64,000 bases of DNA from Thermoanaerobaculia bacterium (GCA_049678185.1 JBAUDS010000371.1:2466-66465); one strand, 5' to 3'; shown: positions 2,900-31,643, counted from the stretch's first letter. The notes: a model not told the origin generated them from the sequence alone. Translations and numbers: made by a program.

Positions 2900-3461
2900 T
2901 CCGGAGCTCTTTTCGTGCCCTGTGGAGCCGCGACATGACCGTACCCACGGGGATGTCCAGTATCTCGGCGATCTCGGCGTAGGAGAGATCCTGAAAGTCC
3001 CGTAGGACCAGGATCTCCCGTCGCGCCGCGTCGAGTCGGCTCAAACCCTGCCAGATCTTGCGCTGTAGCTCGCGTTGATAGGTCTCCAACTCCGGGTTCC
3101 GGCGGAGATCCGTCAGCCGTGGACTCTCCACTACCGTATCAAGCGACTCGGTCCGACGCACCCGGTGCCGTCGCTGCAGATCGCGAGCGCGGTTGCGCAC
3201 AATGGTCAATAGCCAGGGTAGAACCGGGCGTTGGCCGTCGAACCGACCCAGAGTCGTGAAAAAGCGAATCAGTGAGTCCTGGGCCACGTCGAGGGCGTCG
3301 TCGGGGTTGCCCAGGAGCTGGAGAGCCAGCAGATAGGCCGGCCGGCGAAAGCGTACAGCCAGGGCCTCACAAGCCTCCTCGTCGCCGGCCTGGGCCTGGC
3401 TGACAACTTCCGCCTCGTCCGTGGGCGATGGTACTTGGCGCAGTGCCATCTCGGTGCTCAC
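2862..3461 (-). CDS. ECF (sigma-70 family, group IV) RNA polymerase sigma factor
   Basis: Region 2 and region 4 signatures (LIRFFTTLGRFDG..., DLSYAEIAEILDIPVGTVMSRLHRARKEL). Confidence 0.85.
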   Translation of the reverse strand: MSTEMALRQVPSPTDEAEVVSQAQAGDEEACEALAVRFRRPAYLLALQLLGNPDDALDVAQDSLIRFFTTLGRFDGQRPVLPWLLTIVRNRARDLQRRHRVRRTESLDTVVESPRLTDLRRNPELETYQRELQRKIWQGLSRLDAARREILVLRDFQDLSYAEIAEILDIPVGTVMSRLHRARKELRSVLEEELGGFHV

Positions 3462-7531: not shown

Positions 7532-9421
7532 GTGAAGAGCGCTCAAATACTGGTGTTGCTGCTGTGTACGGTGATGACTGCGGGGGCCCTGACGGCACAG
7601 GGCTCGAAATGGGAGTGGGACGGAGTCTCGCGTGTCGTCGCCCTGGGCGATGTGCACGGCTCCTACGACAAGATGGTGACTCTCCTCGAGGGCACCGGCA
7701 TGGTCGACGACCAGTTGCGGTGGATCGGGGGCGATCAGCACCTCGTCTTCTGCGGCGATCTGACCGACCGGGGTGCAAACGATCGCAGTGCCATGGATCT
7801 GGCTCGCCGCCTCCAAGGTGAAGCTGAGGCGGCCGGCGGCAAGGTCCATGTCGTGCTCGGCAACCATGAGGTCATGAATCTGACCCGGGACCGACGCTAC
7901 TGGAATGCCAACCTCCTCGACGAGTTTGCCAAGGACGAGACCGCAGCACAGAGAAAAGAGGCCCTGAGAAAGTTCCGAGCGGGGCAGAGTACCCAGGTCG
8001 CAGGCGCCGACGATGCCTTCGACGAAAAGTTTCCGCCCGGCTACTTCGCGCGGGCGCGGGCCCTCGACCCAGATGGGGAATACGGCTCCTGGCTTCTCGA
8101 GCTGCCGACCGTGGTCAAGGTCAACGGCGTCCTGTTTCTGCACGGGGGCTTGACCCGAAGGGTCGCCGAGCTCGGTCTGGACGAGATCAACGCCCAAGTG
8201 ACCACCAATATCCGAGATTTTCTCGCCAGCGCCGACGAGATGGGCGACGCGGTGCCGTTTCCTGGCGACATGGCCGCCATCATGCAGACCGCCAATGCCC
8301 GCAAGGGCCGGGCAGCCAAGGCCCTGCTGGAGGCGCACGAGGGTCTGGCTTTCGATGCGGCAGGCCCGGTCTGGTATCGGGGCACCTCGGTCGAAAACGA
8401 GCGTCTGGAAAGCGGTCGAGTGACAGCTGTCCTCGCGCTGCTCGACGCCCAGGCGGAGATGATGGGTCACACGGTGACGCGAACCGGCAAGATCTCAACT
8501 CGCTTCAACGGCACCGTCTACCGCGCTGATGTGGGGATGGGTTATGGCCGGCCGCCACTGGCAGGCATACTCGAAGGCGAAAGCCTGAAGGTCTTCGATC
8601 CGGCAAAGGGCACGATTACGGCGGCGCCGGCCGAGCCACCACAGGGCGAGGGTTGGCCGGCTGGAGAAGAAGATCTCGCCGACCATGTGCTGGAGGAGTT
8701 CCTGCAGAAGGCCGAGATCAAGTCGATCTCGACTCTCGACTTCGACGGCGTGCCGGTGAAGTTCTTGAACCTCGAAAGAAAGGACATGAAGCTGCGGGCA
8801 CTCTTTGGTGCAGCACAGGAGACCGCCGAACAGGCCGCCGCCGCCGGGCGCAAGGGGCGCCGTATGTACCAGCATCAAGTCGCGGCCTACAAACTCGACC
8901 GCGAGCTGGGTCTGGACATGGTGCCCGTTACCGTCCTGCGCAAAGTAGACGGCACCGAGGGAGTGGTCCAGATCTGGATCCAGGGCGCCCTGGATATCAA
9001 GGAGCTCCAGGAGTATGACGACTTCAGCGTGCTTTCGGGTATGGATTCGCAGATCGCCAGAGCGCGGGCGTTTACCGGCCTCATTGGTCTCCATGTCCAG
9101 GACAGGGTCAGACAGGGCAAGCTGGTCTTGCCCGTCTCACGCCGCGTCATGCTCTCGGACAATGGCATCTCCTTCACCGTCGACGAGAACGTCGAGGATT
9201 ACCTGCCCGAGGGCTGCGGACCCGTGGGGCCCTCGTTCCTCCACGATCTCAAGACCCTGGAGCTCACAAAGATGAAAAAGGACCTGAGGAAGCTCCTCTC
9301 CGACACCCAGATCGAGGCGGTCCTGAGACGTAGGGACGACCTGCTCCAGCTGTGCGCGAAAGAGAATCCGGATTGGTCGGTCGAGAAGATTTTGGGACTA
9401 CAGCAGAATTCAGCGGACTGA
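7532..9421 (+). CDS. Secreted calcineurin-like metallophosphoesterase (PPP-family fold) with a roughly 300 aa uncharacterised C-terminal extension
   Basis: GDVHG, GDLTDRG and GNHE motifs. Signal peptide. Likely GTG start at 7532 with AGGAGG 7 nt upstream; the listed ORF begins at a TTG at 7511. Confidence 0.75.
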   Translation: MKSAQILVLLLCTVMTAGALTAQGSKWEWDGVSRVVALGDVHGSYDKMVTLLEGTGMVDDQLRWIGGDQHLVFCGDLTDRGANDRSAMDLARRLQGEAEAAGGKVHVVLGNHEVMNLTRDRRYWNANLLDEFAKDETAAQRKEALRKFRAGQSTQVAGADDAFDEKFPPGYFARARALDPDGEYGSWLLELPTVVKVNGVLFLHGGLTRRVAELGLDEINAQVTTNIRDFLASADEMGDAVPFPGDMAAIMQTANARKGRAAKALLEAHEGLAFDAAGPVWYRGTSVENERLESGRVTAVLALLDAQAEMMGHTVTRTGKISTRFNGTVYRADVGMGYGRPPLAGILEGESLKVFDPAKGTITAAPAEPPQGEGWPAGEEDLADHVLEEFLQKAEIKSISTLDFDGVPVKFLNLERKDMKLRALFGAAQETAEQAAAAGRKGRRMYQHQVAAYKLDRELGLDMVPVTVLRKVDGTEGVVQIWIQGALDIKELQEYDDFSVLSGMDSQIARARAFTGLIGLHVQDRVRQGKLVLPVSRRVMLSDNGISFTVDENVEDYLPEGCGPVGPSFLHDLKTLELTKMKKDLRKLLSDTQIEAVLRRRDDLLQLCAKENPDWSVEKILGLQQNSAD

Positions 9422-9905: not shown

Positions 9906-10208
9906 TTTCTAAAGTGCACACCCGCCGGCTTCGTCATCATCACCAGCCGCAAGCGGCTGCACTTCGCTCTGTCTTCGCAAATCCAATTATGAAGCATAAA
10001 GAGCTGTTCCGGCAGAGAGAAAATACCAAGATACCAGACTGGCGTCGGTTGGGATGATGGTGGTGGAAAGCCCACGCCTCCTGTGCGTTAGACTCTTCAG
10101 ACGGCGCGTTCTCGGAAGAATCGTTGTCATCTGCCGTGATTCTCGGGCATGACAGAGTTTCGCCTTTTGAGCCATTCCCACTATGAACGATCGGGGCGAG
10201 GGAGCTCG

Positions 10209-12634
10209 ATGGTGATGCGGACCTTTGGAGCCACTTTTCTGCTTGCCTCAATCGGGATCCTCTGTCACGGGTCCTCGGTTCCGATCTCGGCGGCCGAGCT
10301 TCCGGTCGTCAACGTCGGCATGGTCATCGATGGCCCGTGGGAAGGGAACCCATACGTCACCGAGATCACCCGCAATGAGATTGTCACTCTGACCGCGGGC
10401 GAGTTCGACATCCGCTTTCCCGACGACTACAACATCGAAAGCGACTGGACTCTCGAAGGGGCCATCGAAAACTTGAATCGGCTGCTGAAGAACCCCGGCG
10501 TCGACGTGGTCATTGCCTGGGGTGTCCTCGCCTCTCATGCGGTCGCCCGGATGGCCGAGCTCCCGAAACCGGTGATCGCACCAGTGATCCTCGATGTGGC
10601 GCTGCAGAGTGTCCCCTACCGGGACGGTGTCAGTGGGATGCACAATCTCAATTACGTAGCATTTCCCGACACCCTGGCAGACGATCTCCGGCGGTTCCAG
10701 AGGGTCGTCCCCTTCCAGAAGGTGACCATAATCTCGACCCGGCCGTTTCTCGAGGCCATCCCGGAGTTGTATGCCCAGACCGAGCGCTCTTTGGCGGGTC
10801 TCGACATCGACTTCGAGTACGTAGCAGTCGGATTCGACGTCGACGAGGCCCTGGAGGCCATCCCTGCCGATAGCGACGCCGTATTCATGTATCCCCAGTT
10901 CCAGCTCTCTCCAGAAGAGCGCTCTCGACTCATCGACGGGTTTATCGAGCGCCGACTCCCGAGCTTTACCGCCCTCGGTGGGCAGTTCGTCGAAGATGGC
11001 GTGCTGGCTGGTTTTGGGGCGGCTGACTTCTTCCCGCGAACTGCCCGTCGGATTGCGCTCAATTTGCAGAGGATCCTCCTCGGCGAAGAGGCCGGCTCGA
11101 TTCCGGTCGCGATCAGCCTGCGCGAAGAGCTGATCATCAACATGAAAACCGCTCGCGCCATAGGGGTCTCCCCCACCTACGAGGCGCTACTCGAGGCCAA
11201 GGTGCTCCACCCCTATGCGGTCGACGAGGTCCGCACCTTGACGCTGTCCGAGGCGGTCCATGAGGCGATCGCCGTCAATTTGGATCTGCTGGCTCGCGAG
11301 CGCTCGGTCGCCGCCGGGCAGGAGGACGTGCGGCGCGCAAGCTCGATCTTCTGGCCCCAGGTGGATATCGGTGCTCTGGGTCTGGTCATCGACGAGGATC
11401 GAGCCATCGCCAGCTTCGGCTCACAGCCGGAGCGCTCGCTGACCGGTTCGGTAGGTCTCACCCAGCTCCTCTTCTCGGACGATGCCCTGGCCAACAAATC
11501 GATTCAGACGAGCCTCCAGACCGGTCGGGAGTGGGACTTCGAAGTCCTGCGCCTGGACATCGCGGTCGAGGCGGGAGTCACCTATCTGAATCTGTTGCGG
11601 GCGCAGAGCCTGGAACAGGTCCAGCGCAACAACGTGGCACTCACCCGTTCCAATCTCGAGCTGGCAGAGGTGCGCCGGTCGATCGGCGCCGCCAATCCGG
11701 CGGAGGTCTTCCGCTGGGAGAGCCAGATCGCCACCGACCGCAAGGCCTTGGTGGAGGCAGAGGCCAGCGTTCAAGTGGCACAGATCGCCGTCAATCGGAT
11801 CCTCGATCGTCCCTTGGAAGAGCGTTTCCAGACCGAAGAGGTGGATCTCGAGAAGCCTTGGCGAGTCACCGGGGACCCACGCATCGGCGGCTACATTGAG
11901 ACACCAGCCCGTTTCCGGGCCTTTCAGGATTTCGCGGTCGAGGAGGGAATCGCAAACGCTCCGGAGCTCGAGATTCTGGCAGCGGCCCTCGCGGCTCGGG
12001 AGAGATCCCTGACCAACGCCAAACGCGCCTACTGGGCGCCGCTGATCGCCGCCGAGGCGTCGCTGGACGAGTTCCTATCGAAGAGCGGGGAAGGCACCGA
12101 GCCTCCAGGGCTGCCGGGTGGCGGTCTTTTCCCCACCCCGGACGACACCCTCTGGAGCGTCGGGCTGAGCGCCTCCCTGCCCCTTTTCACCGGTTTTGGG
12201 CCCGCAAGGCCGATCGGATCCAGGCAGAAGAAGGACTCGAGCGGTTACGGCTGGACTACGACGCCACCGCACAACGGATAGAGCAGCGGATCCGCTCGGG
12301 TATGGAGGTGGCTCGGGCCTCCCTAACGGGCATTGGACTGGCTCGCCAGGCTGCCGATGCCGCGGCCAAGAATCTGGAGCTGGTCACCGATGCCTACGCC
12401 CGTGGTGCGGTCTCCATCATCGATCTGCTGGACGCTCAGAACGCCGGTCTCAATGCCGAAGAGCTCGCGACAAATGCGACCTACGACTATCTCGTCGATC
12501 TGCTCGAAGTCGAGAGAGCCATCAGTAGTATCGAGCTCCTGGGCACGCCGGAGACGAGCGCGGCGTTCTTCGTGCGTCTGGAGAAGTATTTCCGGGAGCG
12601 AGGGCTTTCGCCCACGGAAGAACCGTCGGATTAA
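10209..12634 (+). pseudogene. Outer-membrane efflux protein (TolC-like OEP) carrying an N-terminal periplasmic ABC-substrate-binding-like domain (PF04392-like). Reading frame is broken by a 1-nt frameshift near 12190-12200.
   Basis: N-terminal ~330 aa resemble the ABC_sub_bind family (VVIAWGVLASHAV..., LIINMKTARAIGVSP). The C-terminal half is two TolC-like repeats. The frame 0 ORF ends at 12281 and the conserved OEP C-terminus (ARKADRIQAEEGLERLRLDYDAT...AYARGAVSIIDLLDAQ) continues in frame 2 through 12634. The shift sits at a TTTTGGG homopolymer. Confidence 0.7.
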
Positions 12635-12636
12635 GG

Positions 12637-13767
12637 ATGGCAGGGGAGGAACCGCGCATGAGAATCCTTGAGCCCAGAGGTCTGCTGATTGTTTCCCTGG
12701 CGATAACCGGCTTTCTTGCCTGCGGCCGCGAGATTCCCGAGGCCGAGCCGGTCCTGCGTCCGGTCCGCTACCAACGGGTGACGGAGGGGGGGCTCGATAC
12801 CATCCGCACCCTCGTCGGAGTGGCCAAGGCCGGAGTCGAGGCCGATTTGAGCTTTCGGGTCGGGGGCTCGGTCAGAGAGGTCAAGGTCGACCTCGGCGAT
12901 GCTGTGCGCAAGGGGGATGTGCTGGCCCGACTCGATGCCGTCGACTACGAGCTCCAGGTGGAGGAGGCCGAGGCCGGTCTGGCACAGGCCGGCGCCGCGC
13001 TCCGTAAGTCCGAGGCCGACTTCGATCGTACGCGCGCCCTTTATGAGAACAACAACGCCGCCAAGAGCGAACTGGACGCGGCCCGGGCCGCCGCCGAGTC
13101 GGCCCGGTCGCAGGTCGATGCCGCCAGCAAGCGGCTGGAGCTCGCCCGTCAGCAGCTGGCCTACACCGTGCTGCGGGCACCCACCGACGGGGCCATTGCC
13201 CTGACGGACATCGAGATCAACGAGAATGTCAAGGCTGGAGATCCGGTTTTCATGATGACCTCGGGATCGCTGGCCGAGGTGGAGTTCGCGGTACCGGAGA
13301 TCATGATCGCCGAAATCGAAGTCGGCTTCCCGGTGGCGGTTGCGCTCGATGCCCTACCCGGTCGGGAATTCCCAGCCGAGATCACCGAGGTCGGGGTCGC
13401 GGTCACCGGTGCCTCGGCCACCTTTGCGGCGACTGCCCGACTGTTGGAGGAGGTATCGGAGGTCAAGTCCGGCATGGCGGCCGAGGTGATCTTCCGCGTC
13501 GAAAGTGAGGACTCGGAAGGTAGCCTGACGGTGCCCTGGGTGGCGGTAGGTGAGGATCGGGATGGCCGCTTCGTCTTCGTGCTGCAGCCGGAGAGTGAGG
13601 GTGTCGGCACGGTACATCGGCAAACAGTTACCGTCGGCGCCTTCGGCCAGAGTATCGAGATCCTCGATGGCCTCGAGGCGGGCGACCTGGTGGTAACCGC
13701 CGGCACGCGGCGGCTTACCGATGGCATGCGCGTCAAGCTCGAAATCGAGACCGGAGGGGGCACGTGA
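12637..13767 (+). CDS. RND efflux periplasmic adaptor (membrane fusion protein, lipoprotein, LACG lipobox)
   Basis: AcrA/MdtA-like coiled-coil and beta-barrel architecture. Coupled to the downstream RND pump (overlap 13764-13767). Confidence 0.85.
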   Translation: MAGEEPRMRILEPRGLLIVSLAITGFLACGREIPEAEPVLRPVRYQRVTEGGLDTIRTLVGVAKAGVEADLSFRVGGSVREVKVDLGDAVRKGDVLARLDAVDYELQVEEAEAGLAQAGAALRKSEADFDRTRALYENNNAAKSELDAARAAAESARSQVDAASKRLELARQQLAYTVLRAPTDGAIALTDIEINENVKAGDPVFMMTSGSLAEVEFAVPEIMIAEIEVGFPVAVALDALPGREFPAEITEVGVAVTGASATFAATARLLEEVSEVKSGMAAEVIFRVESEDSEGSLTVPWVAVGEDRDGRFVFVLQPESEGVGTVHRQTVTVGAFGQSIEILDGLEAGDLVVTAGTRRLTDGMRVKLEIETGGGT

Positions 13768-16700
13768 ACCTCACCCGGCTGGCCATCGACAACAACCGGG
13801 TGACGACGGTCCTGCTCCTGGTCCTGATCATCGCCGGCCTTGCAGCCTGGTCCAAGATGCCCCAATCGGAGGATCCGGGATTCACCATACGCATCGCCAT
13901 GGTGATCACCTACTTTCCGGGGGCGAGTCCCGAACGGGTCGAGCAGCTGGTCACCGACAAGCTGGAGAAGGCCATCCAGGAGATGCCGGAGCTCGACTTC
14001 GTGCAGAGCGACTCGAAGCCCGGGGTATCGGTCATCTTCGTCACCATCAAGCAGCGCTACAAGGAGATGCGACCGATCTGGGACAACCTCCGTCGCAAGG
14101 TGGAGCGCGCTCGATCCGAGCTTCCGGATGGGATCATCGGGCCGATCGTCAACGACGAGTTCGGTGACGTCTTCGGCACCATCGTCAACCTCACCGGCGA
14201 CGGATACTCCTATGCGGAGCTCAAAGAGGTAGCCGACGAGGTCCGCGACGAGCTACTTCTCATCCCCGACGTCGCCAAGGTCGAGATCTACGGTGCCCAG
14301 GAGGAGCGGATCTTTGTCGAGTACAACAACGCCCGCCTGGCCGATCTGGGACTCTCCCCGCTCCAGCTCCGCGGCATCCTCGGGTCCCGCAACATCATCA
14401 ATCCGGGAGGCGAGGTGCGGACCGAGGACGAAGAGATCGTCCTCGAGCCCACCGGCAGCTTCGAGTCGGTACAGGATCTGAGGCGAACCCTGATCAGCAT
14501 ACCGGGAAGCGACGAGCTTCTCTATCTCGAGGACGTGGCCACGATCCGCCGGGGCTATGTCGACCCACCCTAGACCAAGATGCGCGCCACCGGCGAGCCG
14601 GGACTGGCGCTGGCGATTTCGCTGCGCGAGGGGGGAAACATCCTCACCCTGGGCGAGGAGGTCCGGGAGACCATCGCGCGGTTCCAGGCCAGTTATCCGA
14701 TCGGGATCGAGTTCGACTTCTCCGCCTTTCAAGCCGATGCCGTCAGAAAAAAGGTCGACGACTTTGTCGGCAACCTGATGCAGGCAATTCTGATCGTTCT
14801 GGTGGTGATGCTGGTGATTTTGGGAGTGCGGACCGGTCTGGTCGTGGCAACTCTGATCCCCATGGCCATCATCTCGGCCTTGTTCTTCATGTCGGTCTTC
14901 GACGTGGGGATCAACCAGATGTCGTTGGCGGCGTTGATCATTTCGCTGGGGCTGCTGGTGGACAACGCCATCGTCATGTCCGAGTCGATCATGGTCCAGA
15001 TGACCGAAGGCAAGCCCGCCGTGGAGGCGGCAGTCGACTCGGCGGCGGAGCTCCGTATGCCGCTGCTCACTTCATCGCTGACGACCATCGCAGCCTTTCT
15101 CCCGTTCTATCTGGCCAAGTCGGACACCGGTGAGTACGTGGCGCCCCTCTTTCAGGTGGTGACCATCACCCTGCTTTGTTCCTGGGTCCTCTCTCTCACC
15201 ATGATTCCCTTGCTCTGTGTGCTGTTCCTCAGGGTGAAGAAGGCCAAGCAAGAGGGCTTTGACACGCCTTTTTATCGGATGTACCGCAGGCTGCTGATGG
15301 CCGGACTGAGGCGCCGCTGGCTCACGGTCGCCGTGGTGGTCGTCATCTTCCTGGGCGTGATGCAGCTCGCCGGCTTGGTGCCGCAGATCTTCTTTCCGCC
15401 CAACGATCGTCCTACGCTGATGGTGGAGCTCTTCCTGCCCACCGGGACACCGCTGGCCAGAACCGAGCAGGTGGTACAGGAAGTGGAGGAGTTCATGGTG
15501 GAGAATCTCCTGCTCACAGCCGAGGAGACCGAAGAGGGCCGTGAAGGGGTCGTCAACTGGGCCGGCTACATTGGCGAAGGAGCGCCGCGGTTCATCCTCT
15601 CCTACGGCCCCGAGCAGGCGAGCCCCGAATACGCCATCCTGCTGGTCAATGCGACTTCCAGGGATTTTGTCGACGTGGCGATTGCCCGGCTGCGGGAGTT
15701 CTGCTCCCGATTCCCCGATCTCAAAGCCAAGATCGACCCCCTACCTCTTGGCCCACCCGCCGACAATCCGATCGAGGTCCGCATCTCGGGCCGCGAGCCG
15801 GACGAGGTCTTCCAGCTCGTAGACCGCGTCAAGGAGAAGCTGCTCCAGACTCCCGGTACCCGGGGTGTCGTCGACGACTGGGGTGCCCGCTCCAAGAAGC
15901 TCCTGATCCGCATCAACGAGGCGCGGGCCCAGCGGGCCGGAGTCTCCAACCAGGATGTCGCCATTTCGCTCCAGACCATTTTCTCGGGCTTTGACACCAC
16001 CGAGTACCGGGAAGGCGACAAGATCATCCCGGTGACCCTGCGCTCGGAACAGGCCAACCAGGTCGGGGCGATGGGCCGTGAATCGATCGCCCAACTCGGC
16101 AGCGTCAACGTCTTCTCCCAGGCCACCGGTGCCTCGGTACCCGCCGCCCAGGTGGTGGATGCCGAGCTGGTCTGGCAACCCGCCAAGATCTTGCGGCGCA
16201 ATCGGCTCAAGACGGTGACGGTGGAGTCGGATCTCGAGCCGGGCTACACCGCCGTCGAGATCAACCGGAGTGTGACGCCCTGGCTCGAAGAGGAGAGCAA
16301 GAGCTGGCCGCTGGGCTACTCCTGGGAGCTGGGGGGCGAAGAGGAGGAGGCGGCCAAGGCCAACGCCTCGATCGTGGAACAGCTACCTCTGGCCAGCCTG
16401 GTGATACTTCTTCTTCTCGTAACACAATTCAACTCGATCCGGCGGCCGCTCATCATCCTTATCACCATCCCTCTCGGTCTCATCGGCGTCGTCATTGGCC
16501 TGCTCGTCATGCGCTCCTACTTCGGCTTCATGACTTTTCTTGGAGTGATCTCCTTGGCCGGTATCGTCATCAACAACGCCATCGTGCTGTTGGACCGGAT
16601 CAAGATCGAAATCGAGCAGCATGGCCTGACGCCACAGTTCGCCATTTTGGAGGCCTCCCAGCGGCGGTTGCGACCGATCCTGTTGACCACGGTCACCACC

Positions 16701-16865
16701 CTGGGCGGACTGCTTCCCCTTTATCTCGGTGGGGGACCCATGTACCAACCGATGGCTGTAGCCATCATGTTCGGCCTGATCTTCTCCACCGTACTCACCC
16801 TCGGGGTGGTGCCGGTCCTCTACTCCCTCTTCTTCAAAGTGAGCTACAAGGATTTTCTCGTTTGA
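13764..16865 (+). pseudogene. RND (HAE1/AcrB-like) efflux pump, about 1030 aa, interrupted by an in-frame TAG at 14571-14573
   Basis: ORFs 13764..14573 and 14580..16865 are in the same frame and together align collinearly with AcrB (N-terminal TM1 and porter domain, ...RRGYVDPP*TKMRATGEPGLALAIS...). Only a single TAG codon separates them. Confidence 0.7.
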
Positions 16866-16970: not shown

Positions 16971-17020
16971 ACCGCTGCTATTCTTCAGTCGAGGCCTGTG
17001 GCGAGATGAGGAGGTGCGAG

Positions 17021-17620
17021 ATGTTCGAGAGGATCCTGTTGGGTGTGGGGCGTCGAATGGTGCCGGTTCCCGAGTGTCTATTTCGGACGATGGTCCAGCG
17101 CGATGCGAGGAGGCTCGCCAAAAGGCCGGCCCTCGAGCCCGACGAAAGGCGCGTCCAGCACTTTGCGGTTACGGAGATCCCTCGCCGTCGCGAGGCGATC
17201 ACGCCTGAGGTTTTCGCCGCTGAGCTCGACCTGCCTCCTGATCAGGTGAGCCTGATCCTCGACAAGCTCGAACGGCGCCTGACCTTCCTCTGCCGCAGGG
17301 GAGGGGAGGACGTGGTCTGGGCCTACCCGGTGACAGCCGAGGAAACGCCTCACCAGGTCCGGATGGACGGAGGTGAAGCGTTCTCGGCCGCTTGAGCGGC
17401 CGACGCCGTGGCGACGCCCTTCGTGCAAGGGCAACTGTTGGACAAGGACCTGAGCTGCACAGTCGAGACCGAGTGCGCGATCAGCGGACGGTCCATCGTC
17501 TTCGAGCTCGAGAGTGACCTCGGCTATCGTGTCCGTCCTCCCGCCGAAAAGCCGGTGTTCTTCATTCCCATGATCGACCTACCCAACCTGGACGCGCCGT
17601 GCATCGTCGATGACTTCTGA
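17021..17620 (+). CDS. MerB-like (organomercurial lyase family) protein with an in-frame TGA at 17393-17395 at the position of catalytic Cys96. Candidate selenoprotein, about 199 aa with read-through.
   Basis: ORFs 17006..17395 and 17408..17620 share a frame and are separated only by TGA plus four sense codons. The collinear alignment to MerB places Sec, Asp and Cys at the MerB positions C96, D99 and C117. Start ATG at 17021 has AGGAGG 8 nt upstream. Confidence 0.55.
17393..17395 (+). other. In-frame UGA, putative selenocysteine recoding site
   Basis: Aligned with catalytic Cys96 of MerB. A GC-rich hairpin (cgacgcc-gu-ggcgacg) starts about 6 nt downstream. Confidence 0.45.
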
Positions 17621-17865
17621 ATGAAGAGTGTCTTCTTCTGGTCAGAAGAAGAGGCCCGCACACATCGCCGAGAGAACCCGGAGCCGAAAGGCATCTACCT
17701 CACCCTGCGGCAAGGTGCCATCGTGACCAAACCGATTCAGAGCGTCCTCTTCGGCTTTGCCCAATAGCATTGGTGCGTTGCTGAAGGGGTGTCAGAGGAT
17801 TCTCGGTCAGAGCGGAGCGTCAACTTGGTACACTTCCTCGACTTCCAGTTCAGTGCGAAGGAGCG

Positions 17866-19752
17866 ATGATGGTTGGACCTGCCCCTATGGGCTTTCTATG
17901 GCGGATGGTGGTCGGCGCCTTGCTTGCGCTTTGCCTCTGTTCTTCACCAGCTGCGCAACTGTTGTCAGCAGGGACGGGGGCACCGTCTGCCGAACGGGTT
18001 GCTATACGCCGTGTCGGAACAGTCGGCCAATACGTGGGTCTTTTTGGTTCATCCGTTTCGCCCGATGGCCGATACCTCGTTTTCACGGACTGGACGACTG
18101 GTGATCTGGCCGTCCGGGATCTCGTAACTGACGAGAATCGCCGCGTGACCAACAAAGGCCCTTTTCACAAGGTCGTTGAATGGGTGGAGTTCTTCATGCG
18201 GTTCTCCGGCGACGGGAAGCAGCTCGCGTACATCTGGGACAAGAACGGCTACGAGCTACGGGCCATCAACGTGGACGGCTCTGGCTCGCGCTTCATCTAT
18301 CGCGATGAACCCGAGCAAGGGGAGATGCTTCGCGCCTTCGACTGGTCCGCCGACGGGAAGTACGTTGCCGCCGTCGTCCCCAGGCCAGGTAGCCCGACAA
18401 CGGACAGCACACTTCAGATTGCGCTCGTTCACGTAGCTGATGGCTCGGTGCAGGGGTTGAAAGCCTTGAGCGGGCCGGTGCCGGATGAACAGAGAATGAG
18501 CTTCTCGCCGGATGGCCGCTTTTTGGCGTACGACTTCCCGGTGAATGGAAAGCTACAGAAGCGGGACATTTTCGTACTTCCTCTCGATGGCGGCGAGGAG
18601 ATATCTGGGGTTGCGCATCCGGGGAACGACCGTCTGCTCGACTGGACCCCGGATGGAAGCGCGCTTCTGTTTACCAGCGATCGGGCGGGTGCGCCCGATG
18701 CGTGGCTCCAGCCACTCGAGGACGGGAAACCGCAAGGCGTGGCTCAGAGAGTGAGGGGCAACCTGAGAGAAGACATCCGGCCGCTGGGGTTTGCGCGCAA
18801 CGGAGACTACTACTACGCCACTTCGGAGACTGGTCAACTCGAGGTCTATGCCGCGTCTCTGGACCTGGAAAAGAGCCTCGTGACGGAGTCGCCTGCACCA
18901 GTTCCACAGATTGCCAGTTCGAATCAGGGCCCCGATTGGTCCCCGGACGGAAAGTCTCTCGCCTACATCCGCAACGGCAACAGCATCGTCATCCGTCAAC
19001 TTGAGACCGGCATGGAGCGCTCCCTCACCCCAAAGGCACTGCAGAACATCTTCACGGTGGGATGGGGCGAACGCTATCTCCGCTGGTCACCGAACGGCCG
19101 GCACTTGCTCGCTCCGCAAAATCGAACCTTGTTTCTTGTCGACGTGAAGAGCGGCGAAGCTACTCCGGTGGTCACCGACAGGCGTTCGCGCTACGGGCGG
19201 TGGTCTCGGGACGGCGAGGAGGTCTTCTACGCGCGACAACTCGGACTGAACGATGCGACGGTCCAAATCGTGCGGTTGAATCTTGAGACGCAACAGAAAG
19301 AAGTGCTCTACACTTCCGAACTACCCGGCGAGAATCTCAACAGCCTCGAGGTTTCCCCAGACGGCCGGTGGCTGGCTTTCTCCGACGTGGCGCTGAACAA
19401 GACCACTGGCGACGACGAGACTGTCCTGATGGTGATGCCGGTGGACGGCGGCCGGCCGCGGTTGCTGCTCGAGGTACCAGTCTCGGAAACGGTAAAAGTG
19501 GTGGGCTGGACTCCGAACACACAGGAGATCCTGTTTGCACGGGATCCGAAGTTGGCAGCGAAGCCCTCGACCACGCTGTGGCGAATTGGGAACGACGGCG
19601 GAGAACCACGAAAGCTCGAACTGGGGTTAAACGTGCTGGGCAGCATTCGTTTCCATCCCGACGGCCGGCGCGTGGCTTTTGACTCAGGACAGCGTGGTGC
19701 TGAGATCTGGGTCATGGAAGATGTCCTGTCGCTTCTCAAAGCATCCGAGTGA
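17866..19752 (+). CDS. Secreted TolB-like / PD40 WD40-like beta-propeller repeat protein, 628 aa
   Basis: Repeated SPDG-type motifs (SPDGRYLVF, SADGKYVA, SPDGRFLAY, SPDGKSLAY, SPNGRHL, SPDGRWLAF, HPDGRRVAF). Signal peptide. Confidence 0.7.
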   Translation: MMVGPAPMGFLWRMVVGALLALCLCSSPAAQLLSAGTGAPSAERVAIRRVGTVGQYVGLFGSSVSPDGRYLVFTDWTTGDLAVRDLVTDENRRVTNKGPFHKVVEWVEFFMRFSGDGKQLAYIWDKNGYELRAINVDGSGSRFIYRDEPEQGEMLRAFDWSADGKYVAAVVPRPGSPTTDSTLQIALVHVADGSVQGLKALSGPVPDEQRMSFSPDGRFLAYDFPVNGKLQKRDIFVLPLDGGEEISGVAHPGNDRLLDWTPDGSALLFTSDRAGAPDAWLQPLEDGKPQGVAQRVRGNLREDIRPLGFARNGDYYYATSETGQLEVYAASLDLEKSLVTESPAPVPQIASSNQGPDWSPDGKSLAYIRNGNSIVIRQLETGMERSLTPKALQNIFTVGWGERYLRWSPNGRHLLAPQNRTLFLVDVKSGEATPVVTDRRSRYGRWSRDGEEVFYARQLGLNDATVQIVRLNLETQQKEVLYTSELPGENLNSLEVSPDGRWLAFSDVALNKTTGDDETVLMVMPVDGGRPRLLLEVPVSETVKVVGWTPNTQEILFARDPKLAAKPSTTLWRIGNDGGEPRKLELGLNVLGSIRFHPDGRRVAFDSGQRGAEIWVMEDVLSLLKASE

Positions 19753-23454: not shown

Positions 23455-23937
23455 CTACTGCCCGAAGCGATTGTCTACCAGTGGTGAGACAGCCCCTTTC
23501 GGGACATGGCAAGTGATGCAGATGTAACGCGCACCCACCACCTGGTCGCCCACGGTCTCGGGGGCGAGACGCAGGTCGGTCAGGTGGCTTTGAGGAATCG
23601 GCGTCGGCTCCCCCTCCACTTTCTCCGCTCCCGTCTCCGGCTCGTGGCAGTCCAGGCAAAGGTGCTCCTGGCGCGTTATGGGCAAGAAGTCGGCAATGCC
23701 GTGGGGAATGACGGGTGGCGAGCCGTCGAAGAACCGGGGCAAGACCGGCTGATCCCCTGGGTCACCACCGGCGGCGGGCATCGGGTCGGGGCTCGGCACG
23801 TCGAAGACGCTGGTCTTGCTGAGCCCGATCTCGGTATCGGGCGTCGACGGCGATGTCTTCTCCTCGGCCGCCAGGTAGGTGACGGGCGCAAGGACCAAGA
23901 GGGCAAGGACTAGGCTTTGTAGATTTTGACCGCGCAT
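23455..23937 (-). CDS. napB: Periplasmic nitrate reductase diheme cytochrome c subunit NapB
   Basis: Two CxxCH motifs (CLDCH, CITCH). Signal peptide from the internal Met ([17 protein letters not shown]). Immediately downstream of napA. Confidence 0.8.
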
Positions 23938-26717
23938 TTTTTGAAATCCGTTTGCTTGGAAATGGGGCAGGTGGCGTCCAGCGTCACCTTGTTGATGAAG
24001 ACTCCTTCGTCGAACCACGGCACAAAGACCAAGCCCCGGGGAACCCGGTCACGGCCATCGGTCTCGACCCGCGCCTGGATCTTGCCGCGACGGGACTCGA
24101 TCCAGGCCAGGTCGTTTCGTCGCAGTGAACGGGCCTCGGCGTCGCGTGGGTGGATGAAGATCTGGGCGGTTGGCATCGCCTGGTGGAGCTGGGGCACCCG
24201 GCGGGTCATCGAGCCCGAATGCCAGTGTTCGAGAACCCGGCCGGTACACAGCCACAGGTCGTAGACCTCATCGGGGCTCTCGGGCGGAGCGGCGTAGGGT
24301 CGGTAGAAGATCTTCGCCCGGCCGGCCAACGAGGTCGTCTCGGACTCGGTGACACCGTTCAGATCACCCTTGGGCAGGCTCTTCATCGCCGGGCCGTAGA
24401 AGTCGAAGGCGCTGCCTTTCTTGGCGTAGGGATCGTAGCGCTCATTGAACCGCCATGGGGTCTCCTTGCCGTCGACCACCGGCCAACGCAAACCCCTGAC
24501 GTCGTCTCGGTAATAGACGTCGAAGTCGGCCAGATCGTGGGCATGGTCACGACCAAACAGCACGTACTCCTGGAAGAGGGCCTTTTCGGGAAACCAATCG
24601 AGGCCGCCGTGTTCCACGGTGTGGTTCTCATGACCTTTGGCCACCGGGTCGGGCCAGGCCATCTGGCGGCTTGTCGGGGTGTCAAAAAGCACCTCGTAGA
24701 GAGAGGTCTCGGGCGAGTAGCCGAGTTCTTTGGCCTCCACGAGGACATCGGGTAGAAAACCGTCTTCGAAGCCTGCCGCGGCGAGACCCGGAATCGGCCC
24801 GCGGCCCCACACCTCCTCGAGCTTGAAGCGCTTGGAGAACTCCAGGATTTGCCAGACATCGCTGCGGGCGTCGCCGGGGGGTGGCACCTGCTCGCGCCAG
24901 GCCTGGGTGCGACGCTCCGAGTTGCCGTAGGCCCCCCACTTCTCGAAAATCATCGCCGAGGGCAAGATGAGGTCGGCTACCTTGCACGACAGGGTCGGAT
25001 AGACATCCGAGACCACGATGAAGTTGTCTTTCTCCCGAGCGGCTTCAATCCAGTGGTTGGCGTTGGCGGTGGCCTGGAAGGGATTGGTCACCTGCACCCA
25101 CAGCCATTTGAGCGAACCGTCCTCGAGGTCCCGCATCATCTTGGTGATGTGACTCCCTACCTTGGGGTTGAGGGTCTTGGCCGGGAGCTTCCACACCTCT
25201 TCGCAGCGCTCGCGGTGCTTGGGATTGGCCACCACCATGTCGGCCGGCAGGCGGTGGGCAAAGGTGCCCACCTCCCGTGCCGTGCCGCAGGCCGACGGTT
25301 GACCGGTGAGAGAGAAGGCGCCGTTGCCCGGCTTGGCCTGCTTGCCGGTCAAGAGATGGACCATGTAGGCCTGCTCGTTGACCCAGGTGCCGCGGGTGTG
25401 CTGGTTGAAACCCATGGTCCAGAAGGAGACCATCTTGCGGCCGCGGTTGGCGTAGTAGTCGGCCAGCTGTCGGAGCTTGGCCTTGTACTCCTCCAGCGGC
25501 TCGTCCGGATCGCCTTTGGAGACCTCGGCTACGAAGTCCAGGGTGTAGGGCTCGAGAGCCCTTTTGAAGTCCTCGAAACTGATCAGCCAGTGCTTGCCGG
25601 CGGTCGCGGCGTTGGCCTGCGGCACGCGGTGGGTTTGACTCGGATCTTTGCCCTGGGCGATGGCCTCCTCGCGGGTGAGCGTCACCTGTCGCTCTCGGTC
25701 CTGGGTTGGCTTTTCGCTGTCGAAGGCGTAGGCGTCGGTGGACCGCATGCCGAAGCCGATGTCGTTGGGTCCGGTGGCAAAAACACAGTGCTTGTCGATG
25801 AACTCCTTGTCGACAGCGCCGCGGGCGACGATCTCGCGGGCGATGTAGTTCAAGATGGCGAGATCGGTCTGGGGCTTGAAGACGATCTCGTGGTCGGAGA
25901 GATCCGAGGAGCGATTGTGGAAGGTGGTGAGGTTGACCACCCGATAGTCGGGGTCGGCGAGACGCTTGTCGATCACCCGCGCCCACAACATCGGGTGCAT
26001 CTCCGCCATGTTGGAGCCCCACAGCACCACCGTGTCGGTGAGCTCGATATCGTCGTAGCAGCCCGCCGGCTCGTCGATGCCAAAGGTCTGGATAAAGGCG
26101 GCGACCGCCGAGGCCATACAGTGACGTGCATTCGGATCGATGTTGTTCGAGCGCCAGCCGGCCTTGACCAGCTTCACGGCGGCGTAACCTTCCTGGACGG
26201 TGTACTGACCCGAGCCCATGATCCCGACCCCGGTGGGCCCCAGCTCGCCGTGGACACGCTTGAACTGCCGCTCCATCTCGTCGAAGGCCTGCTCCCAGCT
26301 GACGGGGACGAAGTCGCCTCGCTTCTCGAACTTGCCTTCCTTCATCCGCATCAACGGCCGCGTCAGTCGATCTTCACCGTAGAGAATCTGGGCGTTGGCG
26401 TAACCTTTGACACAGAGCAATCCGCGGTTGACCGTGTTCTCGCGGTCGCCCTGGATGGCCACGACCTTTCCCTCGTGGGTGGCGATGCGGATGCCGCAGC
26501 CAACGCCGCAAAAGCGACACACCCCCTTGTCCCAACGCCAGTCGTCCTCCTGTCCGTAGGCGGCCACCGGCAGTCCTGCCGTTGCTGCCGCAGCGGCGGC
26601 AACGCTGGCCTTGATGAAGTCGCGTCGCGACAGCCCTGAGATTCCATTCATCGAATTTGCTCTCCTACTCGGTATCCACTCCGGTAGCTTCCAACTCTTC
26701 GAAACGATGCTCGACAA
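23910..26717 (-). CDS. napA: Periplasmic nitrate reductase catalytic subunit NapA (molybdopterin, 4Fe-4S, Tat signal)
   Basis: Twin-arginine [16 protein letters not shown] cluster motif. Near full-length collinear similarity to NapA. Confidence 0.95.
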
Positions 26718-26955
26718 GGGCTGCCGCCAGCACCCCGGGTACCCGTTCGAGGCGCCTTAGACCCTCCTGTTGCTCCTCCAGGGTCTCGGTCTCGAGCACG
26801 GCAACGATCCGCCCGCCTGTCGCATCCAGATAGTGGACCTCCACCCCGGGGAGGGCTTCGACCCGCCGAGAGGTGTCGGCCAGATCCTGCGGGTGAGCGG
26901 TGACCAGGATGCCAGAAAAGTGCATGCTCAGTGTTTCCAGCTGAACTGGATCCAA
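26665..26955 (-). CDS. napD: NapD chaperone
   Basis: About 90 aa, directly upstream of and overlapping napA, with NapD-like motifs ([20 protein letters not shown]). Confidence 0.75.
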
Positions 26956-28322
26956 CCCCAGCTGCCGTTGTCGTCCACGCTGAGGATCTCTCTGGCGGCG
27001 CTGCCGCCATTGAAGAAGGCGAGGCCAGCCCCCAGCCCCAGCCCGTGTTTGAACGACCAGTTGGCCTCGATGTCGATCTCATTGCCCAGCGAGTTGGACG
27101 AGAACGAACTGCCATCGGCCGGCCGACGGACCAAGTAGCCGAGACGTTGCTCGTCGAAGGCACCCGAGCCGCCGTACCAGGCGTCCCGTCTGTCGTCGAG
27201 CGCAAAGGTGTGGAGTCCAACGCGGATATTCGTTTTGGCCCCCGGCTTCAGCAGCACCAGGGCATAGATGTCCTGCAGGTTCGAGAACGCACTGAAATCG
27301 ATTGAGCCGTAAAACTTGTGATTCGTTGGCAGCAGATTGAAAAACGAGGAATGACTGCCGGCCGCCGCGTCGCCGCCCGAGGCCTGCGCGATTCCCAGCC
27401 GGAAGCCAGGGGAGGCGATGGCATCCGGAAACATGTAGCCACCCTCGACGATAAACGCCCAGCCCTCCTGATCGACCGGTCCCCAGTCGCCACGCTGGAA
27501 CGCAGTCCACAACATCAGATCGCGGCGCTCGTTGCCCAGCAGCAGGCTCGCCCCGAGGGTGGTGATCTTGATCTCGCCACCGGCGGCCGCCACCGCGCCT
27601 GGCCGACCGTCGTCGTAGAGCAGGCCAAACAGCTGCAACTCGGCCCCGGAGATCCATTTGCCGTAGCGACCGGTGAGCGTCAGACCGTAGACATCGAGAT
27701 CACCCAGCTGCTCGAACGCGTCGTTGTAATTGACCCCGCCAGCCAGGGGCCGCAGGGCGAAACCGGCGAGATCGGAGCTGCCAAAGTCGACGCCGAAGCT
27801 GAGTCCATCGTAGCGGCGTCCGACGTTGACCCAGTCCCAGTTGCCCACCAAGCGTTCGCTCAAACGGGTTCTTTTGACCTGATCGAGATGCGGAACACCG
27901 GTCAGAATCTCCAGACCACCCTTCCAGCCCTGGCGACCGAGGATCATGCGAAAGCGCTCGGATCGATAGCCGACACTTGCCTCGGCGACCCCCACCTGGC
28001 TGGGATCGGTGTCGCCGTCGTTGGCATCAACGTACACCTTGCCGATACCAAAGGCACCGTCTTCGGGCAGATCGAAGGCGGCGGCTCCCTGTAGAACGCC
28101 GTGGAGGGTCCAGTGTTCCCAGTCGAGATCGAGCCCCACCCGAGCCCGTAGCTTCAAGTAGTCGAATTCGCTTTCCAGGTCCGCATTGCCGGAGGGCGAG
28201 CCCCAGGTCTCCCAACGTACACGGACGTCGATGGGCACGTCGATCTCCGGTCCGGCAGCAAGAGTCGACCCGCTTAGAACCAGGACGAGGCAAGTCGCGG
28301 CGAGCAGAATCCTGGTTGTCAT
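26928..28322 (-). CDS. Outer-membrane beta-barrel porin (alginate-export/AlgE-like family)
   Basis: Signal peptide, alternating amphipathic beta-strand pattern, C-terminal aromatic residues (FSWKH). Confidence 0.65.
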   Translation of the reverse strand: MTTRILLAATCLVLVLSGSTLAAGPEIDVPIDVRVRWETWGSPSGNADLESEFDYLKLRARVGLDLDWEHWTLHGVLQGAAAFDLPEDGAFGIGKVYVDANDGDTDPSQVGVAEASVGYRSERFRMILGRQGWKGGLEILTGVPHLDQVKRTRLSERLVGNWDWVNVGRRYDGLSFGVDFGSSDLAGFALRPLAGGVNYNDAFEQLGDLDVYGLTLTGRYGKWISGAELQLFGLLYDDGRPGAVAAAGGEIKITTLGASLLLGNERRDLMLWTAFQRGDWGPVDQEGWAFIVEGGYMFPDAIASPGFRLGIAQASGGDAAAGSHSSFFNLLPTNHKFYGSIDFSAFSNLQDIYALVLLKPGAKTNIRVGLHTFALDDRRDAWYGGSGAFDEQRLGYLVRRPADGSSFSSNSLGNEIDIEANWSFKHGLGLGAGLAFFNGGSAAREILSVDDNGSWGWIQFSWKH

Positions 28323-28478: not shown

Positions 28479-28802
28479 ATGACTGAAAAGCGAGGCATCC
28501 CGAATACCTATCTTCGCTTCCGCGAGAGCTACCCCGAGGTGGCCGCCCACTACGAGGCCCTGGGCAAGAGCCTGTCCCAGCTCGGTGCCCTGGACTCGAA
28601 GACGGCCGCGTTGGTGAAGTTGGCGTTGGCGGTGGCCCAACAACGTGAGGGAGGGGTCCATTCGGCGGCGCGCAAGGGGCTCGAGGCCGGGCTCGTGGCC
28701 GACGAGATGAAGCAGGTGGCTTTGATGGCTATCACCACCATTGGTTTCTCATCGGCGATGGCAGCTTTTACGTGGGTGGAGGACATCGTCGACGGGGAGT
28801 GA
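28479..28802 (+). CDS. Carboxymuconolactone decarboxylase (AhpD-like) family protein
   Basis: CMD-family length and helix pattern. Weakly recognised. Confidence 0.5.
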   Translation: MTEKRGIPNTYLRFRESYPEVAAHYEALGKSLSQLGALDSKTAALVKLALAVAQQREGGVHSAARKGLEAGLVADEMKQVALMAITTIGFSSAMAAFTWVEDIVDGE

Positions 28803-29779: not shown

Positions 29780-31643
29780 ATGAGTCAATCTCCACCTGAA
29801 GAAACGCGAAAGCTGGTTGTCGAGGACCCCCGGCTATTGGCCTATCTGCCGATGCTCTACGTGGCCTGGGCCGATGGCGACCTGTCGGCCGACGAGATCG
29901 GATCGATCTGCTCCAGGGTAACCAGAGCCCTCGACACGGAGGCCAGCTGCCGCGAGCTTCTCGGCCGTTGGCTCGACCCGGCTCAACCACCATCCGCCCA
30001 GGAGCTACAGAGCCTTCTAGTGACCATCCGTCGGGCCGCTCGCGCCCTGGATGCCGATCAGAAGCGGTCTCTCAGCGAGCTGGGGCTGGCGTTGGCCACC
30101 GGCGGCGGGCACCAACCGTCGGCCACCGAGCGGGAGGCCTTGGTGGAGATCGAGCAGGCCCTGGGCTTGATCGGACCGGGTGTGACACGGGGTCTCCTGG
30201 TCCCCGAGCGCCCATTACCCACCTCCATCGAGCCCGAGCCGGACTTCGATGTCAGCGCCCTGGCCCGACTCCTCGACGGGGGTCAACTCCAGCTCAGGCA
30301 GCGAATCAAGGAGATCCTGGGTAGACCCGCGTTCCGCTACGAATACGATCTGGACAGACCGGCCTACAGAGAACAAGTCCTCGCTCGCTGTCGTCTATTG
30401 GCCGCCGAAGGGCTCGGCTCGCTGAGTTTTCCACCGGCCTATGGAGGAGCCGGCGACGTCAGCGCCTTTGTCGCCGCCTTCGAGACCCTTGCTCTCCACG
30501 ATCTCAGTGTGATGACCAAGTTTGGAGTCCAGTTCGGTCTTTTTGGCGGCTCCATCCTGCAGCTCGGAAATTCGAATCATCACCAGTCCCTCCCGGCGGT
30601 TCTTCACCATGCTGGGAACCCTGGTGGGTGGTCGGGTTAGTGTCGCCCTGGCCGGGCTGAGCGCCAGCAAGTCGGCCCTGACCATCGCCGTGCGCTACGG
30701 CGCCCGCCGGCGCCAGTTTGGTCCGGGTGGCGAAGCCGAGACGGTGCTCCTGGACTACCTCACCCACCAGCGGCGGCTGCTACCACGCCTCGCCACCACC
30801 TACGCGCTCAACTTCGCCCTCCACCACCTGGTCGAGCAGTACGCGGCGTCGACCGACGACGACCGACGAGAGGTGGAAGCGATGGCCGCGGGTCTCAAGG
30901 CCTATGCCACCTGGCATGCCACCGACACCATCCAGACCTGTCGCGAGACCTGTGGCGGCCAGGGGTATCTGGCGGCAAACCGGTTCGCTGCGCTCAAGGC
31001 CGACAGCGACGTCTTCACCACTTTCGAGGGCGACAATACGGTTCTGATGCAGCTGGTGGCAAAAGGGCTGCTCACCGGCTATCGCCGTCAGTTCGGCGAG
31101 ATGAAGCTGCTTGGTCTGGTCCGCTTTCTGACCGCTCGGGCTGCCACTGCCGTCGCCGAGCTCAATCCCATCGTCACCCGGATGACCGACGACGACCATC
31201 TGCGCGATCGGGAGTTCCAGCTTGGCGCCATGCGCTGGCGAGAGGAGCATCTCCTGGGGACACTCGCCCGACGGCTCAAGAAGCGGATCGACGCCGGCCA
31301 GGATGCTTTCGAGGCCCTGATCGAAGTGCAGGACCACGCGGTGGAGCTGGCCCGAGCCCACACCGAACGGATCGTTTTGGAGCGCTTTGCCGAGGTCGTC
31401 GACAGCACAGCGGATGCGGACCTCGAGCGGACCCTGGGAACCCTCTGCGACCTTTACGCCCTCCATCGGATCGAGGCCGACCGGGGTTGGTTTCTCGAGC
31501 ACGGCTACCTGGAGGCGGGGAAGGCCAAGGCGATCCGCAAGCTGGTCAACCGGCTGTGTGGGGAGGTGCGACAGCAGGCGCTGCCCCTGGTCGATGCCTT
31601 CGACATCCCGGACGAGCTACTCGCCGCGCCGATCGCGATCTGA
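29780..31643 (+). pseudogene. Acyl-CoA oxidase-like gene with an N-terminal TerB/DjlA-N-like domain. The central beta-barrel domain is missing and the frame is shifted near 30540-30610.
   Basis: ORF 29780..30640 holds a TerB-like region plus the ACOX N-terminal helical domain (...FGLFGGSILQLG). ORF 30522..31643 in a different frame holds the ACOX C-terminal domains (FTMLGTLVGGRVSVA..., CGGQGY, FEGDNTVLM). About 150 aa of middle domain are absent. Confidence 0.6.

Follow-up and report, generated by a model that had tools for sequence, protein, structure and literature searches.

The question raised by this locus is whether a TGA codon that interrupts an otherwise continuous reading frame is a stop codon or a codon for selenocysteine (Sec). 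The locus lies in a stretch of 64,000 nucleotides from a Thermoanaerobaculia bacterium (GCA_049678185.1, JBAUDS010000371.1:2466-66465), the whole of which is referred to here as the window. A preliminary description of the locus had noticed two open reading frames (ORFs) in the same frame parted only by the TGA at 17393-17395, and had proposed that they form one MerB-like organomercurial lyase with a candidate Sec at the catalytic Cys96 position, running from 17021 to 17620. The two ORFs and the TGA between them are seen in the sequence, and the start at ATG 17021 is correct, there being an AGGAGG upstream of it at 17009-17014; the first Met of the homologues is the equivalent of this ATG. The end at 17620, however, is not the end of the gene but a second in-frame TGA, at the site of MerB Cys159, and the frame runs on to 17767. 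The gene is thus a single frame on the + strand, from ATG 17021 to TAG 17765-17767, with two in-frame TGAs inside. The proposal of a Sec candidate in a MerB-like protein is strongly supported for the UGA at the Cys96 site, while the second Sec codon, at the Cys159 site, had been missed. Our reading is that the gene probably codes for a cytosolic selenoenzyme of 248 residues with the MerB fold, in which U125 and U200 would replace the two metal-ligating Cys residues and in which D128 and the structural C152 are kept. That both UGAs are decoded as Sec is, from the comparison of related genes, very likely.

The evidence that carries this reading comes from relatives of the gene. A scan of one genome per species gave 365 stretches encoding a relative, of which 80 loci were kept, and DNA of relatives was also taken from Logan and ENA contigs. 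The comparative set consists of 80 gene copies in 79 loci, including the window gene and a tandem pair in one locus, and the counts given below refer to this set. About ten phyla are represented among the 80 copies. The nearest relatives, with 75-91% identity, are in Acidobacteriota metagenome-assembled genomes (MAGs) labelled Thermoanaerobaculia, Holophagae or Sulfomarinibacteraceae, and relatives with 41-50% identity are found in Desulfobacterales, Syntrophales, Anaerolineae, Dehalococcoidia, Spirochaetota, Binatia, Rokubacteria, Gemmatimonadota, Acidimicrobiia, Margulisbacteria and the SAR324 cluster. Site 1, the first TGA, is TGA in 78/80 copies and site 2 is TGA in 79/80. Since both sites are TGA in 77/80 copies from many phyla, chance is excluded. 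Among the exceptions, one copy (L025) has the Cys codon TGC in place of the first TGA and keeps the second, another (L001) has GGT at site 1 and TTA at site 2, and in a third (L021) a local frame disruption 5' of site 1 puts this site out of frame, site 2 being TGA. The frame, the length and the sequence past each TGA are kept without indels, at 41-91% identity, in the 79 other loci. The tandem pair is in a Sulfomarinibacteraceae MAG (L016), where two double-Sec gene copies, at 9033-9305 and 10367-10639, lie about 1.3 kb apart and both keep both TGAs and both of the hairpins described below.

These data bear directly on the simplest alternative, that the TGAs are real stops, in a pseudogene or between three small ORFs, or that they are read as Trp or Gly under an alternative code. 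Gene callers do split the gene or use code 4, and there are other disrupted genes in the window, namely an RND pump gene with a TAG, a split OEP gene and a split acyl-CoA oxidase gene. Real stops would not account for the conservation past the TGAs, nor for the homology of the parts that follow them to the C-terminal half of MerB. As to the code, TGA is an ordinary stop in the window, as had been noted before; it closes 29 of the 52 greedy ORFs, for example the one at 31-2097, and it is the commonest terminator both in the window, which has a G+C content of 63%, and of the family gene, whose real terminator is TGA in 37/79 homologues. The family also has two invariant Trp columns, which are TGG in 80/80 and 79/79 copies and never TGA, and conversely the Sec columns are TGG in none of the 80 copies. 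Because TGA terminates the family gene in 37/79 homologues and the Trp columns are always TGG, the code has not been reassigned. Reassignment as in code 4 or 25, like a pseudogene, is refuted by the comparative data, and we regard this whole group of explanations as extremely improbable.

The protein databases give a distorted picture of the family. Two kinds of match were obtained in protein searches: close relatives (75-90% identity), which all stop at '...SAA', that is, at the first TGA, and full-length proteins of about 250 residues with 35-45% identity, which have Trp at both sites. The DNA of two of the latter (L002 and L003) shows that the 'Trp' at both sites is a TGA that the gene caller had translated with code 4. 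When 1.84 billion cluster representatives were searched, 790 clusters (50% identity) were found with E up to 1e-3, and most of them are 125-residue fragments that stop exactly at site 1. The family is systematically mis-annotated in public databases, either as such fragments or as code-4 Trp entries (P0007-P0035 and similar), the latter translated from short contigs. Sister clusters are informative in another way. Six of them (P0048, P0049, P0053, P0058, P0059 and P0072) have Cys at site 1 and are truncated at site 2, two (P0046 and P0051) have Ser at site 1 and Cys at site 2, and further divergent ones are without a nucleophile at site 1. Homologues bearing Cys in the columns of the UGA are a classical signature of Sec, and since such homologues exist for both UGA columns, in L025 and in the sister clusters, the family carries this signature. 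Orthologues with Cys at the first UGA, which the preliminary description had named as something to look for, are thus present in L025 and in the six clusters.

A bacterial Sec codon is expected to be accompanied by a selenocysteine insertion sequence (SECIS), and SECIS-like hairpins are found after both UGAs. Hairpin 1 has a 6-bp stem, GCCCUU/AAGGGC, and a CGUGC loop at 17422-17426, which is +30 to +34 from the first UGA. Hairpin 2, from the minimum free energy (MFE) fold, has a 9-bp stem, UCUUCUUCU/AGAAGAAGA, closed by a GGUC tetraloop at 17640-17643, which is +23 to +26 relative to the U of the second UGA. The codons that overlap the hairpins are nearly invariant. In hairpin 1 Pro is CCC in 78/79 copies, Phe is TTC in 78/78, Val is GTG in 79/80, Gln is CAA in 75/80 and Gly is GGG in 77/80; in hairpin 2 the two Phe codons are TTC in 80/80 and 79/79, Ser is TCA in 77/80 and the Glu codons are GAA in 78/80 and 73/77. 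Outside the hairpins invariant residues have a codon entropy of 1-2 bits at four- and six-fold sites, the other Gln columns favour CAG, GGG is the rarest codon in the other Gly columns, and a Ser column near a hairpin uses six different codons. The bases that pair also change together. At site 2 RNAalifold gives a consensus 7-bp core with the GGUC, and pair counting finds compensatory changes, CUC with GAG in L018 and CGG with UCG in L056. In hairpin 1, 65 sequences have G-C and 6 have U-A at pair 24-40, and 35 have C-G and 10 have U-A at pair 23-41; the cells in which both sides have changed number 17 against 8.3 expected, a value reached in 0/500 shuffles. A SECIS-like element after the UGA at the Cys96 site, which had been anticipated, is thus found as a hairpin with synonymous-site invariance and covariation. 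The comparison shows both UGAs to behave as sense codons under selection, each apparently coupled to an RNA hairpin, and the hairpins, being within the coding sequence, would seem to fix the corresponding peptide motifs, TPFVQG and FFWSEE, even at the level of single nucleotides.

The apical GGUC of the fdhF SECIS of E. coli is at +22 to +25, and bacterial SECIS predictors use a range of 16-37 nt. The hairpins of the present family resemble the in-frame SECIS of the fdhF type in lying just 3' of the UGA within the coding sequence. The position of GGUC in hairpin 2 is like that in fdhF, and hairpin 1 has a G-U in its loop, as in bacterial SECIS, within the range of the predictors. They are unlike the fdhF type in that the stems are only 6-9 bp long, there is no evident bulged U, and two independent elements are present in one small gene. 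We propose that each UGA would be recoded through its own small in-frame SECIS hairpin, which SelB together with Sec-tRNA(Sec) would read.

Recoding by SelB need not in principle insert Sec, for SelB-dependent tRNAs with Cys identity reportedly occur in some bacteria, and Cys is tolerated in homologues at both columns. That the UGAs are recoded to Cys in this way is nevertheless very improbable. The trait spans about ten phyla whereas Cys-identity tRNAs are rare, two costly UGA/SECIS pairs have been kept with almost no reversion to TGC or TGT (TGA in 78/80 and 79/80 copies), and a relative has a normal tRNA for Sec. This last was found by ARAGORN as a tRNA-SeC (anticodon tca) at 1942-2039 (-) of a Holophagae contig (L038), where a copy of the family gene is found 8 kb away, at 10001-10405 (+). 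The copy covers residues 114-248 only, with 85% identity, and the contig lacks its N-terminal half; either the gene is truncated or there is a problem of assembly. Immediately 5' of this partial copy are two genes resembling flavin mononucleotide (FMN) reductase genes.

A second gene with an in-frame TGA, for a selenoprotein of a known type, was found in the window itself. It is a DUF3179 (PF11376) gene at 43274-44248 (-), with the TGA at 43946-43948 in the context 'AAVW-U-PLANT', and its product bears a signal peptide. With U replaced by C the protein matches the Pfam profile with E=1.3e-57 over positions 3-288 of 292, across the TGA, whereas the ORF before the TGA by itself covers positions 3-61 only. 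DUF3179 appears in published lists of selenoprotein families (PMC13188914, PMC9312934). Only a weak hairpin follows this UGA directly, and in place of the listed UxxC/T motif the protein has UPLA. A scan of the whole window for in-frame TGAs with coding-like flanks gave only the MerB-like gene and the DUF3179 gene as credible cases. An ORF of the CMD family at 28479-28802, which ends in TGA, was considered as an AhpD-like selenoprotein and rejected, since its domain is complete, there is no CxxC or CxxU, and no coding continuation follows. The DUF3179 gene and the tRNA-SeC on the related contig L038 lend indirect support to a Sec trait in the source organism.

The second part of the question is whether the protein is related to MerB and where in it the two UGAs fall. 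In MerB Cys96 and Cys159 are the metal ligands and Asp99 is the proton donor. The homology searches were done with both TGAs read as Cys. Joined in this way the protein, which the preliminary description had aligned collinearly with MerB, matches Pfam MerB PF03243 with E=6.3e-14 and 52.5 bits (gathering score 27). Residues 110-238, with both TGAs among them, are aligned to positions 2-118 of the 126 in the profile. In phmmer alignments to PDB sequences the first TGA falls on the Cys of 'FAWCA' in MerB2 and the second on the Cys of 'GGTCKQIHYF'. A profile of the family aligned with E. coli MerB (3f2g/1s6l) and MerB2 (5c17) gives U125=Cys96, D128=Asp99, C152=Cys117 and U200=Cys159, so that the positions of the catalytic triad Cys96/Asp99/Cys159 are held collinearly by Sec, Asp and Sec, an arrangement analogous in its chemistry although the Cys residues that define the triad are replaced. 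This agrees with the earlier placement by eye of the UGA on Cys96 and of the Asp at +3 on Asp99, and it corrects the placement of Cys117: the Cys at U+21 that had been matched to it is not conserved in the family, and the invariant Cys at U+27 (17474-17476) aligns instead. Asp128 is invariant in 80/80 gene copies. The motifs around the two Sec sites are AAUAAD at site 1 and DDFUMKS at site 2, without an adjacent Cys.

The fold was examined with an AF2 model of a homologue (P0016) that is 45% identical to the window protein. The model has a predicted local distance difference test (pLDDT) score of 87 and a predicted template modelling (pTM) score of 0.85. In a Foldseek search of PDB with it the top 11 matches, whose E values run from 3e-11 to 7e-7, belong without exception to MerB or MerB2, with template modelling (TM) scores of 0.6-0.8 and 14-20% identity, and all matches beyond these have E > 0.07. 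As judged from this model the three-dimensional fold of MerB is kept in the family, the whole catalytic core included. The comparison thus shows the UGAs at what are, by alignment, the two metal-ligand positions of the MerB fold, with the predicted catalytic Asp retained.

If the protein works as MerB does, the two selenolates would bind the metal of an organometal or organometalloid cation, most plausibly that of an organomercurial such as methylmercury. Asp128 would then protonate the carbon, and the hydrocarbon would be released with the metal held between the two Se atoms. The low pKa of selenols and the very strong Hg-Se bond could allow the substrate to be captured from anoxic media rich in thiols or sulfide. 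By analogy with MerB, mercury as the substrate is the obvious guess.

Several observations weigh against a selenoenzyme of this kind. Among the annotated genes of the 64-kb window there is no selA, selB or selD and no tRNA-Sec; ARAGORN found no tRNA in the window, Rfam at gathering thresholds gave no match in it, and scans of all the relative loci for the G1 motif of SelB and the pyridoxal phosphate (PLP) motif of SelA found none. The hairpins are short, and folds of the single sequence are no stabler than those of shuffled sequences (z=0.14 for site 1 and -1.17 for site 2). These z-scores are not significant, so the argument for the SECIS elements is a comparative one. The copy without either TGA, L001, still has both hairpin sequences, and hence nucleotide conservation alone is no proof of current function; the loss of the TGAs in L001 looks recent, since its nearest relatives are members with both TGAs, for example L076. 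The window protein scores far under the curated cut-offs of the NCBIfam models for canonical MerB (NF033555, 35.0 bits against 200; NF009710, 28.4 against 193) and for the MerB-like selenoprotein SaoL discussed below (NF040728, 41.2 bits against 140, not reached), and no model in NCBIfam release 20.0 captures the double-Sec family. Two Hg-Se bonds would hinder release of the product, so turnover as a lyase is uncertain. Finally, no conserved neighbours point to a substrate. When the ORFs within 7 kb were clustered over the 79 loci, no conserved neighbour emerged, the largest cluster, that of a beta-propeller protein, being present in 8 loci and that of the RND pump in 4, and the gene is therefore a stand-alone gene. 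There is no merA, merR, merT or merP near it in the window or in the 79 loci, and it is not in a mer operon; a scan of all the relative loci for the cap-helix motif of HgcA found none.

Some of these observations would fit the main rival as to function, a double-Sec protein of the MerB fold that does not turn over: a protein that binds soft metals (Hg, Cd, Cu, Ag) with very high affinity or sequesters them, a chaperone for metal transfer, or a redox protein with a selenenyl-selenide bond. The evidence for Sec decoding is the same for such a protein as for the lyase, there are no mer or other partner genes to receive the bound metal, and the low scores against the MerB models also agree with it, as does the extreme affinity of Se for Hg, which is established chemistry. 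This affinity is noted in 10.1101/2022.07.06.499078 as well, where it is also cited that MerB itself can bind other metals, a single change being enough to give a copper binder. Against this, the proton-donor Asp is present in 80/80 copies three residues past U125, exactly as in MerB, and a pure binder would have no need of it; the model also suggests that the entire core fold of the MerB catalytic domain is retained. We therefore consider a protein that does not turn over unlikely, and prefer the selenoenzyme.

Within the selenoenzyme reading a more specific role may be suggested: the stand-alone diselenol enzyme could account for the mer-independent demethylation of methylmercury in anoxic sediments and groundwater, for which an enzyme is missing, or it could detoxify methylmercury by converting it to mercury selenide. 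This is a tentative idea, and on present evidence a doubtful one. If it were true, the carriers would be Acidobacteriota, Desulfobacterota, Chloroflexota, Spirochaetota and others without mer operons, and the two selenolates would enable the enzyme to take methylmercury away from its thiol and sulfide ligands at the concentrations found in the environment.

The preliminary description had also suggested that a MerB-like selenoprotein may be new. This is not so, and a Sec-containing homologue of MerB is already known as an idea. SaoL, a MerB-like 'selenocysteine-assisted organometallic lyase', was described by Haft and Gwadz (NCBIfam NF040728; bioRxiv 10.1101/2022.07.06.499078), who mapped its residues onto MerB in the same way, and an 'alkylmercury lyase MerB-like protein' is listed among the selenoproteins in PMC9312934 and PMC13188914; in a 2026 review SaoL is the sole MerB-like entry, with one Sec. 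SaoL and the window family are alike in having the MerB fold, a match to PF03243, the equivalent of Asp99 and a Sec at the Cys159 position, and both are found in anaerobes, with database entries truncated at the UGA. They differ at the ligand sites: the single Sec of SaoL is part of a CU dipeptide aligned to Cys159, and its equivalent of Cys96 is still a Cys (Cys99 in C. difficile), whereas the window family has Sec at both sites. The CU dipeptide that marks SaoL is not found in the window gene, which has A-U-A at site 1 and F-U-M at site 2, and the same is true of 77/80 homologues. SaoL has about 213 residues and the window family about 248, with an extra N-terminal segment. SaoL is mostly in Firmicutes, whereas the window family has its closest members in Acidobacteriota and occurs widely in Chloroflexota and Desulfobacterota. 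In anaerobes SaoL is the marker of an SAO operon of nine genes, and the window family is without conserved context; no SAO locus (saoTECXLBPAD) was found, since the neighbours include neither an ABC transporter nor SaoC nor any other protein of the SAO type, and they are not conserved. Canonical MerB (EC 4.99.1.2; PDB 3F0O/3F0P; MerB2 5C17) has the same fold with collinear Cys96/Asp99/Cys117/Cys159 positions, and the window family departs from it in having Sec for both ligand Cys residues, about 45 extra residues at the N-terminus and no mer operon nearby. A search of the literature on MerB, organomercurial lyase or alkylmercury lyase together with selenoprotein or selenocysteine found no description of a MerB with two Sec residues. 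The Sec at the Cys96 site, the diselenol site, the paired SECIS elements specific to the family and its wide stand-alone distribution thus appear to be undescribed.

To our knowledge MerB is the only enzyme that cleaves Hg-C bonds, and its chemistry depends on two Cys thiolates and one Asp. A natural replacement of both thiolates by selenolates would alter the chemistry of this active site, and it is conserved over many anaerobic phyla. With this family the MerB-like selenoproteins would gain a two-Sec group, and Sec would be placed for the first time at the Cys96 position; the family also offers a concrete candidate for organometal metabolism, including demethylation of methylmercury, in organisms without mer operons. 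Since the databases contain little of the family besides 125-residue fragments or code-4 mistranslations with an active-site Trp, surveys of merB diversity will have missed or misread the family. It also appears to be a clear case in which two invariant peptide motifs, PFVQG and FFWSEE, are imposed by SECIS elements that lie in the reading frame. The features of the window gene are collected in Table 1.

Table 1. Features of the gene for the putative two-Sec MerB-fold protein, in window coordinates
Feature	Position	Strand	Basis or remark
Shine-Dalgarno-like AGGAGG	17009..17014	+	6 nt 5' of the start codon; read directly from the sequence
Complete gene, predicted MerB-fold selenoprotein with two Sec, 248 residues	17021..17767	+	stop is TAG 17765-17767
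Predicted Sec codon 1 (U125), equivalent of MerB Cys96	17393..17395	+	conserved TGA, HMMER alignment, Cys in sister clusters
Asp128 codon, equivalent of MerB Asp99 (proton donor)	17402..17404	+	Asp in 80/80; profile alignment
SECIS-like hairpin 1, overlapping codons T-P-F-V-Q-G-Q	17416..17432	+	codon invariance, covariation
Cys152 codon (U+27), equivalent of MerB Cys117	17474..17476	+	invariant in the family; aligned to MerB and MerB2 Cys
Predicted Sec codon 2 (U200), equivalent of MerB Cys159	17618..17620	+	conserved TGA, alignment, Cys in P0046 and P0051
SECIS-like hairpin 2, overlapping codons V-F-F-W-S-E-E-E	17631..17652	+	MFE fold, RNAalifold, codon invariance

In the window the gene is preceded by genes for an outer-membrane factor, a membrane-fusion protein and a resistance-nodulation-division (RND) pump (10149-16865), and is followed by a gene for a PD40 beta-propeller protein (17866-19752). 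The pump gene, which codes for an AcrB-type RND transporter, is at 13764-16865 (+) and is a frame of about 1034 codons with an in-frame TAG at 14571-14573 ('YVDPP*TKMRATGEPG'); the Pfam ACR_tran match covers positions 2-264 ahead of the TAG and 274-1020 past it. The TAG could reflect a pseudogene, an assembly error or TAG read-through, and a tblastn search among the loci of the relatives for relatives of this interrupted pump gave no match. The outer-membrane efflux protein (OEP) gene in 10149-12634 (+) appears to be split, changing to another frame after 12281, and the ORF at 12302-12634 carries the end of the OEP domain. Similarly, the acyl-CoA oxidase gene at 29780-31643 (+) appears to be split: the ORF at 30522-31643 has only the C-terminal domains, and it overlaps with an ORF 5' of it in a different frame. 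These splits and the TAG in the pump gene suggest that the assembly contains wrong bases or indels, or that the genes are decaying.

Some further genes may be recorded. The L001 contig, Logan SRR28984798, has its family member at 2030-2782, and next to it at 407-1897 (-) are genes for a TehB/TPMT-type and an LCM-type methyltransferase; TehB/TPMT enzymes have been linked to the methylation of tellurite and selenium compounds. In the window a molybdopterin oxidoreductase of 935 residues with a twin-arginine translocation (TAT) signal is encoded at 23910-26717 (-), with Fe4S4, Molybdopterin and Molydop_binding domains and no in-frame TGA, and after it, at 26928-28322 (-), comes a gene for an outer-membrane protein resembling alginate-export proteins. 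A gene for a YbjQ_1 'putative heavy-metal-binding' protein at 2103-2672 (-) adjoins one for a sigma factor of the extracytoplasmic function (ECF) type at 2862-3461 (-).

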